A stretch of 64,000 bases of DNA. Source: Bdellovibrionales bacterium. GTDB taxonomy: Bacteria; Bdellovibrionota; Bdellovibrionia; Bdellovibrionales; UBA1609. The DNA lies in assembly GCA_965199825.1 (NCBI GenBank), contig OZ241329.1, positions 1,600,001 to 1,664,000 of the forward strand. Reading direction: 5' to 3'. Shown piece by piece: positions 19,068 to 42,455 of this stretch. Made by a program: the position numbers and the translations under genes. Positions within the stretch are counted from its first letter, which is position 1. Every line of letters starts with the position of its first letter. Below the pieces are notes generated by a model. That model was not told where the DNA came from. It worked only from the letters and a program-made list of their open reading frames with translations, and made no database searches.

Positions 19068-19295
19068 ATGGAAAAAATCAGTGGAATTGTTTCGAGTTCG
19101 GCAAGAGTTCCGGCAAGTGACAGCCAAGCCTCTGCTCGGCCTGGGGCTCCAACTCTTGGTCGCTCACAAGCAAATCTTGCAAAGCAAGACGTTGCTATCG
19201 TGTCGGATTTAGAGACCCGATTTTTTAAACCTGAGCGCGGCGAAACTCCCGATGAGCTAACTCCAAAGGGAACATATTTGGATCGCGAAGCTTAA
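19068..19295 (+). CDS. small hypothetical protein
   Basis: AGGAGG RBS before ATG 19068; MEKISGIV...RPGAPTLGR. Confidence 0.75.
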   Translation: MEKISGIVSSSARVPASDSQASARPGAPTLGRSQANLAKQDVAIVSDLETRFFKPERGETPDELTPKGTYLDREA

Positions 19296-20347
19296 GCGAT
19301 TTGCTCGAGACAAAAACCAAAACTTTCTAACGATGCAATCTTTGACAAACTCGCGAAGCGGCGTTGTCCATCAACCATTTTCAAAACCAAAATCGCATCC
19401 ACACTCAAATGAATGAGTTGTCTGACCGCCAGCACATTCCACTGTGGAGCCCCAAGTTGCACCAACATCTCAAGGCGCAACAAGGCCTGCTGAGCATTGT
19501 CGGCATGAAGAGTTCCAAGTCCACCTTTGTGGCCGGTGGCAAAGGCCATCAACAAATCTTTTGCCTCTTCACCTCGCACCTCACCCATCACGATGCGATC
19601 GGGCCTCAATCTTAAGCTTAGTTTTACAAGATCAGCCAAACTGACCTCGTCAAGATGACCTTGCGAATCCTTGCGCGACAAAAGTTTTGTCGAAAGGGGA
19701 TTGGGGGTTAACAGCTCATCGGTATCTTCAATGATCACCGCGCGCTCGGTGTTCGAAATTTCATTGAGACAAGAATTTAGAATCGTGGTTTTTCCTGTGC
19801 CGGTTGAACCCACCACGATAATACTGGCGTGAGATTTCAAAAGACCACGCAATTGCTCGATCGCCTCTGCCGAAGCCCAACCCTGCTTCTCTAATGTGGC
19901 AAAATCGATGGCTGATTGCCGCTGCCTGCGAAAGCTCATCTGAAAAAGAGATTGCACAATCGGCCGCTGCACAACGCACAATCGAAAGTTACGAAAGCGT
20001 CCATCCCCTCGGGGAGCATTGATATTGGTGACGATCTTTGATTCAGCACAAACGCGATGAAAAAAATTAGAAAATGTTTGCAGCGATAAAAAACTTTGCT
20101 CCGAGCAATTCCAACGGCCCTCCTTTTCAAACCAAATCTGGTCCTCGCCATTGATTAAAATTTCTGTAACAGCCTCATCAAGAACAAGCGGCGTCAGAGG
20201 TCCAAGACCTAAGTGTTCGGCTCGCAAGCGATCTTTAAATGGACAACTTTCGGTTTGTTTCAAAATAAAATCTTCGAGCGCAATTTCACTTTCTTGCTGG
20301 GCCTTTTCGATTTGCTTTTGCAAAACGAGAAATGCTTCGTTCAACAT
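19292..20347 (-). CDS. cpaF: Flp/Tad pilus assembly ATPase CpaF/TadA
   Basis: VTEILING, GSTGTGKTT, IEDTDEL, LRLRPDRIVMGEVRG and TGH..TLHA; start placed right after the cpaC stop. Confidence 0.9.
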   Translation of the reverse strand: MLNEAFLVLQKQIEKAQQESEIALEDFILKQTESCPFKDRLRAEHLGLGPLTPLVLDEAVTEILINGEDQIWFEKEGRWNCSEQSFLSLQTFSNFFHRVCAESKIVTNINAPRGDGRFRNFRLCVVQRPIVQSLFQMSFRRQRQSAIDFATLEKQGWASAEAIEQLRGLLKSHASIIVVGSTGTGKTTILNSCLNEISNTERAVIIEDTDELLTPNPLSTKLLSRKDSQGHLDEVSLADLVKLSLRLRPDRIVMGEVRGEEAKDLLMAFATGHKGGLGTLHADNAQQALLRLEMLVQLGAPQWNVLAVRQLIHLSVDAILVLKMVDGQRRFASLSKIASLESFGFCLEQIA

Positions 20348-20348
20348 C

Positions 20349-21626
20349 TTACAGCTCACTGTAGCGCTCATGATTTTCAAAACCTTTTGGGAGTTTGGGG
20401 ATTTCGGCCGGGCCTTCAAGACTCTCAAGATAGGGAGTAACAAAAACCACAAGTTCGGTGCGTTGATCAATAAAGTTCTTTGACTTAAACAGCTCGCCTA
20501 AAATTGGAATTTTTTGAAACGGGAAAAATTCTTGCGAATGACTGCCTAACTGATTTTTGATTAGCCCCGAAAGAATGATTGTTTTACTTCCAATGAAATT
20601 GAGCTGAGATTCAATCCGATTTGTTTTTAAGCCCGGCACACCATCAATCATTTGCGAAGGATCAATCAACGAAACTTCAATAGTCATTTGGAGACTCATA
20701 TGACCGGTGTGATCGGCTTGAGGTTTAAATTGCAACAACACTCCATGCTTTTTCCAGCTCACTTCTTGATGCCTCAACGTTTGCATCCGAATCGGAAATT
20801 CACCGCCCGCCATAAACTCGGCACTTCCGCCGCTGCGACAAACCAAATTAGGAGAAGCAAGCACTTGAGCTTTACCATTGGTCTCGAGGTTTTTGAGTTG
20901 GGCCAAAAGCCCGCCCTCGTCGCGAAACTGCGGCAAAAGCTGGGCTTGATAATTATTTTGCCAGTCCACTCCGACCTCTTGCAAAAAGGTATGGCTCACT
21001 TCGGCCAGCATCACGTGCAGCCGCACCAAGGGCTCGAGGCTTATACCTTTGTTCGCCTCAACAAATTCAAGACCGAATTTTTTGGTTAAATTTGTGGCTT
21101 GAAGTTTTTGGGTGTCATTTGCAAAGGTGAGGGTAAAGGGCTGACTCGGGTCCCACTGCATGATCGCCGGAGGTAGGCCAATTTTGCGAAATTCAGAAAA
21201 TAAAAAATGGCGGGCGTGATCCAAAACTTCTTTTTCCATTTTGGCCTGAAAATAATAAGGCACACCCTCTAATAAGTTCGCGAGCCTTATCCAATCTTGA
21301 AAACGCCACAGTTCTCCTTTAATTTTAAGGTGGTCGCCCTCCCATTGAAAATCGAGTCCTTTTAAAGCTAAGAGATCGCCCTCACGCACAACGGCGTGGG
21401 GGAGGATCAAAATTTTATATTGGCTCTCACCAATGCGGGCATTGATTTGGCCGCGCTTCATAGCGGTAACTTCCAGTCGCGAACCAAAATCATGCAAACG
21501 AATATGCGAATTTTGCGGAATAAAAACATGCTCATGATTTTTGAGATTGATAAATCGCCGCTCGCCCTCTTGAAGCACAAAGAGTTGGCCTGCAAAAGCA
21601 AAATGAAAAAACAAAAGCCACATCAT
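20349..21626 (-). CDS. cpaC: Flp/Tad pilus secretin CpaC/RcpA
   Basis: ASPNLVCRSG..AEFMAGGEFPI, IPILGELFKS and ELVVFVTP. Confidence 0.9.
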   Translation of the reverse strand: MMWLLFFHFAFAGQLFVLQEGERRFINLKNHEHVFIPQNSHIRLHDFGSRLEVTAMKRGQINARIGESQYKILILPHAVVREGDLLALKGLDFQWEGDHLKIKGELWRFQDWIRLANLLEGVPYYFQAKMEKEVLDHARHFLFSEFRKIGLPPAIMQWDPSQPFTLTFANDTQKLQATNLTKKFGLEFVEANKGISLEPLVRLHVMLAEVSHTFLQEVGVDWQNNYQAQLLPQFRDEGGLLAQLKNLETNGKAQVLASPNLVCRSGGSAEFMAGGEFPIRMQTLRHQEVSWKKHGVLLQFKPQADHTGHMSLQMTIEVSLIDPSQMIDGVPGLKTNRIESQLNFIGSKTIILSGLIKNQLGSHSQEFFPFQKIPILGELFKSKNFIDQRTELVVFVTPYLESLEGPAEIPKLPKGFENHERYSEL

Positions 21627-34202: not shown

Positions 34203-35051
34203 ATGTTTTGTGGGAAACAGTTATTCAGTTTTGTAGCGTTAATAGTTTTGTTTAGTTCTGTTACAGCCGTTGCATCGACTCCAGCAGAAATTCTAAATTC
34301 TAACATTGAATTCCTAGAGCTTCCCGCAAACGCCAAGATCGCCTTAATTCGGGCTCATAATAAGCAATTTGGGCTAGGCCTTGCTCAAAGAGAATTCACC
34401 GTCGGTCATGTGGTTCGAACCTCTTCCCTGTATTTTGCTGCAGTGATAGGTAGTCGGCGAGTGATCGCAGAAATTAAAAGCTCATTAAATAAAAAAAATT
34501 TAAGGCTCGGTATGGTGCAGATCGAAATCGATGAATATTTGAAAAATGGAGAGACTCCACCTTTGTTTCAAAATTCAAGAATCGAAAATCTTCCGCTTAC
34601 ACATTCTGATCTAGTGCAACTTAACAATTCATGTATAAAAACGATTGATCAATTTTTTGGCCTTACGACGCAGGAGTTGTTAAAAAATCATTTCGACTCT
34701 CATACTGGAATATTTTTTAGAACCAAATTTCGCTATTATGATCTCTTCGAAAATTATGGCCATATTTTGTTTGACGATGTTGTGCACCGAGCTCAGTTTT
34801 CTCGCACGCATTTATCAGCGAATACGAGTCTTGATGGGGTTCGGATGAGTACTGAGTGTCGCAGATATTCAAAAAGCTTGGGGCTCAATACTGTTGGCGA
34901 TGTCAAAAATCTCCACGATAACTTCTTGCAAAATTCATCTTCATTTTTGCCAAAGAAAGAAAAAACCGAAATTGAATTTTTAGAACTGCGACGCGTGCTG
35001 AATGCTCTTATTCAAACGTCTTGCGAAGCAAACTTATTACCAAATTATTGA
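34203..35051 (+). CDS. secreted protein with three RNA polymerase alpha-CTD-like repeats
   Basis: signal peptide ending AVA; IEFLEL...TVGHVV...EIKSSLNKKNLRLGM; IENLPL...IKTIDQF...QELLK; LDGVRMS...GLNTVGDV. Confidence 0.7.
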   Translation: MFCGKQLFSFVALIVLFSSVTAVASTPAEILNSNIEFLELPANAKIALIRAHNKQFGLGLAQREFTVGHVVRTSSLYFAAVIGSRRVIAEIKSSLNKKNLRLGMVQIEIDEYLKNGETPPLFQNSRIENLPLTHSDLVQLNNSCIKTIDQFFGLTTQELLKNHFDSHTGIFFRTKFRYYDLFENYGHILFDDVVHRAQFSRTHLSANTSLDGVRMSTECRRYSKSLGLNTVGDVKNLHDNFLQNSSSFLPKKEKTEIEFLELRRVLNALIQTSCEANLLPNY

Positions 35052-35091
35052 ACGCTGATCTGAATATTTGCCCAAAAGTTACGCCACGTGA

Positions 35092-35583
35092 TTAGCCGTA
35101 CCACAATTTCCATTCTGCTTTGAGGTTGCGGTACGACTCACATTCTTCTACCGCCTGCCATGCGACTTTAAAAATTTCTGCGCATTGGGCTTTGATGGGG
35201 TCAGGATCGTTTGCAAGCTTTGAACGTCCATGACTGCCGCTCACACCTTTTAATTCCTGTGGAACGGGGCCATCATATTTTTTTCCGGAGCGATGATTGG
35301 CGTAGCGTCGAGACCGGGTGTAACCCATTTGCAAAAATTTGCGGGCCATGTCCATTCCGGCAAAATCATTCTCAGATTTATACTTGTGAAAGGCTTGTGA
35401 GATTGCTTGAGCCGATTTTTCTGCGAGATCAGGAGTCTTAAATTTCCATAAGGGCAATATTTCTGATTTGTACGGTTCGACGAGCAAAACGCCTTGTTCA
35501 CCAATACCTACGCGGTAGAGCTCTGGACGTTCGCGGAAATTTATTTTTTTAAAATCTTGAGTGTAGTCAAAGGCCATAGCCAT
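35092..35583 (-). CDS. DUF4385 family protein
   Basis: YRVGIGEQGVLLVEPYKSEILPLW and DMARKFLQMGYTRSRRYANH. Confidence 0.85.
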   Translation of the reverse strand: MAMAFDYTQDFKKINFRERPELYRVGIGEQGVLLVEPYKSEILPLWKFKTPDLAEKSAQAISQAFHKYKSENDFAGMDMARKFLQMGYTRSRRYANHRSGKKYDGPVPQELKGVSGSHGRSKLANDPDPIKAQCAEIFKVAWQAVEECESYRNLKAEWKLWYG

Positions 35584-35757
35584 CAAGTCTTATGAGTTTT
35601 AGAAGTCCCAATCAATACCTAACACTCACTTTATTTCAGAGGTGTCTAACAGTCTCACCCAACATGTAAGGCAGGCGCTCTCTTAACTACTGCTAAGGCT
35701 TTTTTAAAAGGCATGGATGTTGAATTGATTATCAAAAAATATTTTAATTGAAGAGGT

Positions 35758-36624
35758 TTGTCGGTGGTCTTTGCAAGGAAGTCTTTATTTGTAGTTACCG
35801 CAATTCTTTTATCCACATCCTCAATTACGTTCGCTGACGAGTCTGAGTCTAATGCTTCTGCGAAAAGAATTTTAAATTCTGGAATTGAAATATTGGGTTT
35901 ATCTTCAAGTAATCAGCTCGAACTGGCGCGCGGTTATGAGATTCAATTCCAAAAACCTCTCAAATGGGAGGACTTCAAGGTTTTAAGGGCGGTCCAAATT
36001 TCTTCTGTTTACCTGACTGGAGATACCGGTTCAAAGGGCCCCGTTGCACAAATTAAAAAAGCTCTGAGTAAATATAATCTTCGCCTTGGGATGGTGAAGG
36101 AAGAAATTGATTATTTCAAAGTCCATGGCGATTCTAAGGGTTTCTTTGCTCAATCACGGATTGAATACCTGCCGTTAGAAAAGGATGATTTGGTTCGTCT
36201 CAATGCTGCTAAGGTGATCACGATTGCTCAATTTTTTTCACGGACAGTCCAAGACTTTTTAATTGATCCCACTGATTCTTTTAGTCCCGATTTCAATGCT
36301 AAAAAGCAAGTATTTGGCGAAATTTTTGAATTTTACAAAAAAACCTTGGATGATGATGTGATTCAACGATCATATCGAAAACACAACCAACTATTTCCTG
36401 AAGTCTCTTTAAACCGAGTTCGAATGAGTTCGAGTTTAAGAGGAATTTTAGAAAAATCGAATCTCATTACTGTTGGACCAATTGCTAAGCTTTCCGATGA
36501 AGAAGCGGTGACACTGGTTTCGCATCACCATATGGAGTCCAAAGTCGAAGTTGAATTTTATGAGTTGCGAGAGCATCTCATTCAACTGACTGCCTCAGCA
36601 TGCCAAGGGGCCTTAACTAACTAA
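35758..36624 (+). CDS. secreted alpha-CTD-repeat protein, paralog of 34203..35051
   Basis: colinear similarity (ILNS.IE.L.L, NLRLGMV..EID, SRIE.LPL, DDV..R, VRMS, E.EF.ELR); GAGG RBS with TTG start. Confidence 0.7.
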   Translation: MSVVFARKSLFVVTAILLSTSSITFADESESNASAKRILNSGIEILGLSSSNQLELARGYEIQFQKPLKWEDFKVLRAVQISSVYLTGDTGSKGPVAQIKKALSKYNLRLGMVKEEIDYFKVHGDSKGFFAQSRIEYLPLEKDDLVRLNAAKVITIAQFFSRTVQDFLIDPTDSFSPDFNAKKQVFGEIFEFYKKTLDDDVIQRSYRKHNQLFPEVSLNRVRMSSSLRGILEKSNLITVGPIAKLSDEEAVTLVSHHHMESKVEVEFYELREHLIQLTASACQGALTN

Positions 36625-41174: not shown

Positions 41175-41770
41175 AATAAAACTCCCAGCCGCACAAGCGC
41201 ACCCCAAAGTGTGTTTGGTCCTGCGGTCGAATAGTAGGGCCCAACCTCAATGAGAGTATGTGCAACCCCAAAAAAATCAAATCCATATCCAAATCCTCCG
41301 CGCACCATCACTCCGGTATCATTGGTGGAGGAATTTGGAATCAAGGAGGTTTGGGTAACAATTTGTAAACTCTCAACCCCTAGATCAAAATGATAATAAT
41401 AACCTGAGCCAATAGTAGGTTTTAAAAAATTCATATAGGTGAAAAGCCCAGAATAGGAACGAATCGCCAGCCTGCGCTGATCGCGTTGATCGCGACCGAA
41501 TTCTTCGAGCAGTGCGCTTGCCAAAAATCCAAAAAGTTTTTGATCGTCTAAGCGGTAGTAGGCCCCTGGCAGCTCAAGCAGTCCACCCGAGATACTCCAC
41601 AATCCGTCGGCATGGGCCTCGCCAATTTTTTGTTGCAGGTTTGAATCATGCTGAGGATAGGGCGAAAAACCGGTGCCCACATAAAAATACCACTGATCTT
41701 GAACCCCTTCTTCGGCAGAGACAGCTTGGTTAAACAAACCGAGCGCCAAAATGATAATCAAAACTGGCAT
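41171..41770 (-). CDS. putative outer membrane beta-barrel protein
   Basis: signal peptide, alternating aromatic/Gly beta strands, C-terminus VRLGVLL. Confidence 0.65.
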   Translation of the reverse strand: MPVLIIILALGLFNQAVSAEEGVQDQWYFYVGTGFSPYPQHDSNLQQKIGEAHADGLWSISGGLLELPGAYYRLDDQKLFGFLASALLEEFGRDQRDQRRLAIRSYSGLFTYMNFLKPTIGSGYYYHFDLGVESLQIVTQTSLIPNSSTNDTGVMVRGGFGYGFDFFGVAHTLIEVGPYYSTAGPNTLWGALVRLGVLL

Positions 41771-41852
41771 TTTTTCCTTTACCTTATTCATTCTTTTAGA
41801 GAAGTCGCGACAGTGCGATACTCCAGCAATGAATTTTGAATTTGATTTCGCC

Positions 41853-42455
41853 ATGATTCATCTCAAAAAGAAAGTTTTCTGTTTCGCTAGCACGCTGCTT
41901 TTTTGCCAAGTGATTTGTGCTCAAGAAATGTGCTTGAGCCAACTTGCCAAAGGCCGACTCAGAAATTTTACTTCTGAGCATATCACTGCAGCGACCGCAA
42001 TTTTGAATGACCCTGAAGTGTCACACTATCTGCATGATCATCCCGCAAATGAAATACCCGATGAATTGGCAAAAATGATTCGCCATGAAGACGACTCGTT
42101 GATCAAAGGATATTGGTATCAGGACGAGCTGGTTGCCTTAGTGGGTCTGCAGCACGATAAAAATCAACTGAGATTTATCGCAAGAACCGAATCCGAAAAA
42201 CAGTATCTGATGATGTGGTTTGCGGTTAAGCCTTCACAACAAGGCCGAGGTTTCGGAACAGGTGCAACAAGAGCTCTGCTCGAATTCTTGTTCGACCACA
42301 CGGACCTTCCGGGAGTGTTTGCTTGTTTCAACAAAGAAAATGTTTTCTCTCGAAATTTAGTGGCAAGAGTTGGATTTTCGCTCACCACTCGCATTGGAGC
42401 CAGCGGATTGATCTGCGCTCACCTTAGCCGCGAGCGATTTTTAAATAAACATTAA
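41853..42455 (+). CDS. RimJ/RimL-type GNAT acetyltransferase with N-terminal signal-like peptide
   Basis: LR....ILNDPEV..YL, QQGRGFGT and ENVFSRNLVARVGF; hydrophobic N-terminus then CLSQL. Confidence 0.8.
   Translation: MIHLKKKVFCFASTLLFCQVICAQEMCLSQLAKGRLRNFTSEHITAATAILNDPEVSHYLHDHPANEIPDELAKMIRHEDDSLIKGYWYQDELVALVGLQHDKNQLRFIARTESEKQYLMMWFAVKPSQQGRGFGTGATRALLEFLFDHTDLPGVFACFNKENVFSRNLVARVGFSLTTRIGASGLICAHLSRERFLNKH

Follow-up and report, generated by a model that had tools for sequence, protein, structure and literature searches.

Layout of genes A and B

The 64,000-nucleotide stretch of DNA analysed here (the window; contig OZ241329.1 of assembly GCA_965199825.1, positions 1,600,001–1,664,000) carries two genes, A and B, whose open reading frames encode proteins of 282 and 286 residues. 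Each product comprises a predicted Sec-type signal peptide, three tandem repeats related to the domain that ends RNA polymerase's alpha subunit at the C-terminus (alpha-CTD) and a terminal Cys-x3-Leu motif (Table 1). A and B are colinear over their full length, with 104 of 283 positions identical (37%; expectation value E = 7e-51), which bears out the paralogy described in an earlier note on this DNA; the three repeats that it counted in each protein are supported as well. The 2.84 Mb genome encodes no third paralog. Translation of B most likely starts at the GTG at 35764, because a GAGG lies 7 nucleotides upstream and the database gene call (P0004) also has 286 residues; the TTG at 35758 is disfavored because it lies too near the ribosome site. 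The genome's own rpoA is located at C1:350-351 kb, and its product is 82–84% identical to the RpoA of Bdellovibrionales genomes. From this we infer a host of that order, the predator lineage that the note had supposed.

Table 1. Features of the A/B locus, in window coordinates
Feature	Position	Strand	Basis
Gene A: signal peptide, three alpha-CTD-like repeats, Cys tag	34203..35051	+	Open reading frame, paralog alignment, structure model
Predicted Sec/signal peptidase I signal peptide of A (residues 1–24)	34203..34274	+	Heuristic and sequence inspection
A repeat 1: alpha-CTD fold, loop inserted after helix 1, extra C-terminal helix	34287..34541	+	Model matches
A repeat 2	34566..34778	+	Profile match to PDB RpoA-CTD; PF03118 match of ortholog
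A repeat 3	34812..35015	+	Model match; alignment with third repeat of P0002
C-terminal Cys-x3-Leu tag of A	35022..35036	+	Motif enrichment in genome
Gene B: A-like layout	35764..36624	+	GTG 35764 gives 286 residues; TTG 35758 gives 288
Predicted signal peptide of B	35764..35835	+	Heuristic and inspection
B repeat 1	35866..36120	+	Alignment to A
B repeat 2	36145..36357	+	Alignment
B repeat 3	36391..36594	+	Alignment
C-terminal Cys-x3-Leu tag of B	36601..36615	+	Motif
DUF4385 gene between A and B, probably unrelated	35092..35586	-	PF14328, E = 6.9e-63

Relationship of the repeats to alpha-CTD

Taken together, the profile searches and the predicted structure establish the homology of the A and B repeats to alpha-CTD, with extreme divergence; we accept it because a profile of orthologs, the ranking of PDB sequences, colinearity with a recognizable relative and the structure model agree. 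Direct comparisons are mostly silent. A Pfam scan of A and B gave no match, the PF03118 cut-off of 23.8 bits not being reached, and a PF03118 search across the genome missed both at E ≤ 10. Queried alone, A retrieved only itself in a near-length search of 5.8 billion proteins, and an alignment-based search of the same number (A3 alignment) returned only the query rows. Neither A against PDB sequences nor full-length A against the Atlas gave a match; mature B reached PF03118 clusters of the Atlas at 0.83, which we treat as a lead only. A metagenome pattern scan yielded 92 candidates and zero relatives, and the one match of A in 60 related genomes (E = 0.007) was interrupted by a stop and discarded. 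The host's own RpoA-CTD scored above shuffled sequences against repeat 1 (p = 0.007 for A and 0.038 for B) and not significantly against the other four repeats. A likeness of repeat 2 to repeat 3 in the shuffle test proved to be an overlap artefact of the segment limits.

The kinship emerges through transitive profiles. When 1.84 billion proteins were searched with the two-sequence A/B profile, five matched, namely A, B, the orthologs P0005 and P0006 (E = 3e-20 and 1e-16) and P0007 (E = 9e-7), which carries several PF03118 repeats at 116 bits. The region of P0006 equivalent to A repeat 2 matches PF03118 with E = 0.002. Profile A4, built from A, B, P0005 and P0006, for none of which we observed a score at the PF03118 cut-off, was run against 177,635 PDB sequences; seven RpoA-CTD chains led the list (E = 0.005–0.014), followed by ribosomal protein L18 (E = 0.04–0.07), and the part of the profile responsible for the RpoA-CTD matches was repeat 2. 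Among about 17 candidates examined was P0002 of genome G067, with which A is colinear over 246 residues (E = 3e-7). P0002 passes PF03118 (60 bits) through its second and third repeats, the latter aligning with A repeat 3; homologs P0003 and P0007 also reach the cut-off. Of the pattern described in the earlier note, the cited repeat 1 sequence was found and the T-V-G core is retained in repeat 3, whereas the I-E-x-L start is absent from repeat 3.

An AlphaFold model of A computed from seven sequences has a predicted local distance difference test score (pLDDT) of 86.4 and a predicted template-modelling score (pTM) of 0.80. In a structure search of 48,161 chains the three leading matches were all alpha-CTD: A repeat 1 with E. 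coli alpha-CTD (1lb2_B; Z = 8.2, root-mean-square deviation 2.8, 71 residues aligned) and with 1z3e_B (Z = 7.2, deviation 2.2, 66 aligned), and A repeat 3 with a plastid polymerase alpha subunit (8w9z_A; Z = 6.5, deviation 2.8, 65 aligned). The model of repeat 2 gave only matches to SAM and helix-hairpin-helix (HhH) domains near Z = 4.4, with no alpha-CTD chain listed. Alpha-CTD chains also occupied the leading rows in Foldseek, with probabilities up to 1.00; the anticipated fold does appear in the predicted model, for repeats 1 and 3. Several points tell against it. The seven-sequence alignment included true alpha-CTD repeats; a two-sequence model was poor (pLDDT 47.7) and fold searches with it were uninformative; the Foldseek E values were 0.06 or worse; and a Z near 8 does not settle the matter where folds are helical. 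Profiles free of the A/B clade were also weak on A and B, one giving E = 2.1 and 25 and a second placing B third and A fourth among 20,414 open frames (E = 0.037 and 0.13).

The DNA determinant of alpha-CTD includes residues N268, G296, K298 and S299, and the CRP determinant T285, E286 and E288. The three faces of alpha-CTD are known by residue 265 (DNA), residue 261 (D258 and E261; sigma region 4) and residue 287 (V287; CRP and other activators), according to PMC1874639. We counted these residues in 13 repeats of the A/B clade and in a further 67 from other members of the family. Within the clade Arg265 and Gly296 are each found in 0 of 13 repeats and Asn268 in one; the loss of the DNA-contact arginine recorded in the earlier note is thus complete. 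Mature A and B are near-neutral (30 Lys and Arg to 27 Asp and Glu in A; 34 to 36 in B), and to judge from these residues the two proteins probably cannot compete for DNA. Among the other 67 repeats, Arg265 is kept in 34, Gly296 in 32 and both in 18; relatives that retain Arg265 together with a GK-type hairpin could compete for UP-element DNA, and the L221 protein is one that keeps Arg265 and the hairpin.

Export signals, the Cys-x3-Leu tag and the wider family

The N-termini of A and B contain one or two basic residues, a hydrophobic core with a mean hydropathy over 9 residues of 3.0 and 3.1, respectively, and an A-x-A-type site after residue 24. This n-h-c layout, with small residues at -3 and -1, agrees with the Sec-type signal peptides called in the earlier note. 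Our calls combine a heuristic of our own with inspection; the heuristic is lax (918 of the 2600 genes of the genome were called signal-like), and none of the RpoA controls scored as signal-bearing. Export of A and B is likely on this evidence.

Both proteins end in Cys-x3-Leu, a feature that the earlier note missed. At the C-terminus this motif occurs in 53 of the 918 signal-like proteins, where control positions give 9 and 5; for the 1682 other proteins the count is 24, against control values of 29 and 18. Just after the signal it occurs 84 times against 20, an excess inflated by lipoprotein cysteines. Pfam scans of 94 tagged proteins (cut-offs of 1e-3 and 1e-4) left 76 without a family. The 18 with matches comprise seven cytoplasm-type proteins with a convincing signal, three ambiguous cases, five envelope-type proteins and three false signal calls, the classes being our own judgement and the numbers small. 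The seven are an ABC1 kinase, a MutS_V ATPase, a PrkA_C protein, a peptide deformylase, a weak DnaJ match and two OmpR-type winged-helix proteins. For comparison, 80 signal-like proteins called untagged, taken from 20 regions and the window, included 35 with Pfam matches, mostly to envelope families, and five false signal calls; only two of the 80 were cytoplasm-type with a convincing signal, and both carry the motif on inspection. ATP-dependent and DNA-binding domains are of little use in the periplasm, and for this reason the composition of the tag class suggests cargo for the cytoplasm of another cell.

Several tagged proteins are described here individually. Two adjacent signal-led proteins with an N-terminal Cys-x3-Leu (L163:1180-1896 and L163:2080-2802; G000:C1 ~1,217,200-1,218,800, - strand) contain an OmpR-type winged helix (Trans_reg_C, E = 3e-15 and 2e-9). 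Another domain of this kind apparently follows it in each, and a receiver domain is lacking; they have the look of exported transcription factors. A SpoVR+DUF444 fusion (L253:3228-6317) and a PrkA-like protein (L253:11688-14087), both signal-led and tagged, are encoded about 5 kb apart; the SpoVR, DUF444 and PrkA families normally share one cytoplasmic operon. The MutS_V ATPase (L151:5085-6746), the ABC1 kinase (L150:91-1986) and the peptide deformylase (L241:13314-14210) are likewise signal-led and tagged. In the window, a GNAT acetyltransferase gene (41751-42455, + strand) has an internal start that yields a signal peptide followed by Cys-x3-Leu.

We gathered 33 alpha-CTD-repeat proteins other than RpoA, partly from 20 extracted regions that represent a subset of the extra matches; three have unreadable starts. 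A signal-like hydrophobic stretch is present in 28 of the 30 readable members, after which inspection shows a cleavage site with small residues. Each of these 28 also carries Cys-x3-[L/F/M/V], the pattern being relaxed here from strict Leu (27 by script, one by eye), near the C-terminus or directly after the cleavage site. The proteins derive from 14 genomes of the order, including the host, and three further ones have no assigned genome. PF03118 is passed by 16 of the 17 signal-bearing relatives scanned, several of which also match HHH_5. A PF03118 search over 151 genomes of the order gave additional matches outside RpoA, and one over 111 genomes of the phylum gave three. When a repeat profile was run over 109 genomes of the taxonomic family, 14 of the 108 other genomes had more than one match; one of these is explained by an additional RpoA copy, another three were the source of query rows and the remaining ten are new, all in three genera with genomes of 1.3–2.5 Mb. 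In several genomes the second PF03118 match was set aside on reading the translations, as DNA ligase, a PolX-like protein, a second RpoA copy or noise. On these data the exported-looking alpha-CTD-repeat design is a recurring one in the Bdellovibrionales and not a single oddity. The searches thus returned the fold, the signals and homologs that are mostly signal-bearing and, where the genome is known, belong to the Bdellovibrionales, in line with the earlier note and not with cytoplasmic proteins of non-predators.

The four members of the A/B clade are mutually 24–38% identical, with the signal, three repeats and terminal Cys intact in all four, and conservation extends to the helix and linker between repeats. 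Elsewhere, the small-genome relatives G362, G017, G376 and G330 have 7–11 alpha-CTD-like matches each, the family being expanded there. In the small-genome genera RpoA frames commonly span 400–590 residues, and in G334 a true RpoA (L214:1279-3723) is lengthened to about 800 residues by a Pro/Ala/Lys-rich repeat tail. In a tagged alpha-CTD-repeat protein of G376 (L217:1586-3529) the last 100 residues look RelE/ParE-like by eye, with no such Pfam match at 1e-3.

One relative (L224:494-1978 in G333) preserves a traceable origin. This signal-led protein contains an ankyrin-like region (by eye, no Pfam match), a recent copy of the rpoA tail and a C-terminal Cys tag. A 254-base stretch of the copy is 87.8% identical to the genome's own rpoA, and at the protein level 68 of 78 residues match the own RpoA, compared with at most 61 for any of 111 other RpoA loci. 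Synonymous divergence (dS) is 0.43 and nonsynonymous divergence (dN) 0.07; their ratio of 0.16 mixes both branches and stays below 1 with an even split of the synonymous changes. Arg265 and Gly296 are retained. In this relative, the domain was therefore recruited from the lineage's own rpoA and maintained by selection. We infer the same origin for A and B, for which the donor is untraceable, by extension from this single demonstrated case. For A and B themselves, a related strain differs by nine synonymous and nine non-synonymous bases (a synonymous excess with p ~0.015, assuming a neutral synonymous share of 0.24, at low depth).

The surroundings of A and B contain, besides the DUF4385 gene, which the earlier note leaves out, genes for a trypsin-like protease and a nitroreductase as well as orphans, identified by Pfam scan. 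These neighbors offer no operon hints, no word of at least 10 bases is common to the upstream regions of A and B, and promoter-like sites are fewer than expected by chance. One RNA run gave three partial reads and was uninformative. Further away in the window (19292-21626, - strand), genes for a secretin and a type II/IV secretion ATPase probably belong to a Tad-type pilus locus.

Possible roles and comparison with known systems

The role that we rank first, tentatively and with well under even confidence, is interference with prey transcription through protein contacts; a repurposed scaffold follows closely, and then come nucleic-acid binding, drift and cytoplasmic self-regulation, in that order. 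In the proposed mechanism, A and B are likely exported and likely delivered into the prey cytoplasm; the repeats would there contact proteins of the transcription apparatus, not DNA, and in this way interfere with transcription in the prey. Support for delivery is indirect and comes from the character of the tag class; the decoy mechanism is unproven.

Several observations weigh against this proposal, in addition to the limits of model and profiles given above. The protein-binding faces are patchily kept. Of the 13 clade repeats, two keep Val287 on the CRP face, four an acidic residue at 286, eight Thr or Ser at 285 and five an acidic residue at 288, and retention of Thr285 and Glu288 may be structural. 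On the sigma region 4 face, acidic residues occur at 258 in 7 of 13 repeats and at 261 in three, both together only in A repeat 1. In the RpoA of the host itself, position 287 is Ala. Titration of CRP or NusA, partners named in the earlier note, drew no support from our tests, and neither CRP nor the AR2 region of NusA, described for gamma-proteobacteria in PMC6614797, is favored as a partner of the A/B clade. For proteins that mimic a single conserved surface of the prey, identities of 24–38% within the clade are low. Proteins of the A/B type are rare: outside the host, a match was found in one of 383 genomes of the order and one of 400 of the phylum, the same genome both times, which had itself supplied a query row. 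Two family members, L213 and P0007, have no signal. We identified no machinery for reading the tag, the four secretins of the genome showing no link to it, and the predatory life of the host is an assumption drawn from its taxonomic placement.

Alternatively, the alpha-CTD fold of exported effectors may have been repurposed as a general SAM/HhH-like binding scaffold, a compact three-repeat unit with a new surface and a target outside transcription. We regard this as possible, if doubtful. The erosion of all three classical determinants fits it, the pTM of the model suggests that the three repeats form a single rigid body, the helix and linker between repeats are among the conserved clade positions, and repeat 2 has only SAM/HhH structural matches. 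The fresh rpoA-tail copy of G333, under purifying selection with its Arg265 and Gly296 kept, points the other way, as do the tagged OmpR-type DNA-binding domains of the host genome, which suggest a transcription theme.

That A and B are exported binders of nucleic acid, ComEA-like in the periplasm or acting on prey DNA, which they would trap or condense as food, is improbable. The idea has a footing in the DNA contacts of alpha-CTD through residue 265 and its neighbors (PMC1874639), in the Arg265 and Gly296 counts and HHH_5 matches of other members, and in the binding of DNA in the periplasm by ComEA (PMC3879209), a precedent that makes the earlier premise of no periplasmic role for such a fold too strong. 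The complete absence of both residues from the clade, and mature proteins that are not basic overall, speak against it. Still less probable is that a signal-plus-tag cassette captures pieces of the genome's own genes and that A and B, taken up long ago, are drifting and functionless: the large share of tagged proteins without a Pfam family, the patchy distribution and the broken start of the copy L219 in a relative fit this, whereas the features intact across four proteins at such low identity, the synonymous excess and the confidently modelled fold do not. Finally, cytoplasmic regulation of the cell's own transcription, with N-termini that are not functional signals, is very unlikely, since a hydrophobic core followed by a small-residue site is present in 28 of 30 members and in none of the RpoA controls, despite the lax heuristic and the existence of signal-less alpha-CTD repeat proteins (P0007, L213 and two Atlas clusters).

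If interference with prey transcription is nevertheless retained, a broader version may be imagined, speculative and doubtful as a whole. The Bdellovibrionales would repeatedly have copied their own rpoA tail behind a signal and a Cys tag, yielding multivalent mimics that are delivered to prey and shut down transcription; together with the tagged OmpR-type domains, kinases and ATPases, these would be the cargo of an undescribed route that reads Cys-x3-Leu/Phe.

An RNA polymerase domain in a protein that seems designed for export is unexpected, and here it recurs in one predatory order. A and B may bear on how Bdellovibrio-type predators silence their prey and on how Sec-exported proteins reach the prey cytoplasm. 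A review states that prey transcription stops 20–25 min after entry (PMC13689555), and in the predatosome paper Sec delivery of degradative enzymes is assumed (PMC2797640). The two small proteins permit a direct test in E. coli, and their tag offers a handle on the delivery route; even if inert, the two proteins would record the recruitment of a domain of an essential gene into the secretome.

A and B resemble alpha-CTD (PF03118; PDB 1lb2, 3n4m and 1z3e) in the predicted fold of repeats 1 and 3, the profile of repeat 2, the hydrophobic core and, in repeat 1, a terminal motif of the Leu-Gly-Met type. They differ in their three tandem copies, signal peptide, Cys tag, insertions, lost DNA-binding residues and scores below the Pfam cut-off. 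Unlike RpoA, they have no alpha N-terminal domain, for which there is neither room nor a match, and lie outside the ribosomal protein operon. Stand-alone multi-alpha-CTD proteins (P0007 and Atlas clusters of Bacteroidota and Bacillota) share the tandem PF03118-type repeats outside RpoA; P0007 also has the extra helix after repeat 1 and differs in lacking a signal peptide and tag. We found no function described for these proteins in the literature searched, nor any description there of exported alpha-CTD repeats or of the Cys-x3-Leu tag (mostly non-subscription papers, without supplements). With the ComEA-type periplasmic HhH receptors for DNA, A and B have in common small, exported, helical HhH-type domains, but they show no ComEA-family match, have lost the hairpin glycine and have no competence locus nearby. 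With the class of Bdellovibrionota proteins that bear a terminal Cys-x3-Leu/Phe tag they share the motif at a free end of signal-led proteins; in A and B an RNA polymerase domain forms the cargo.

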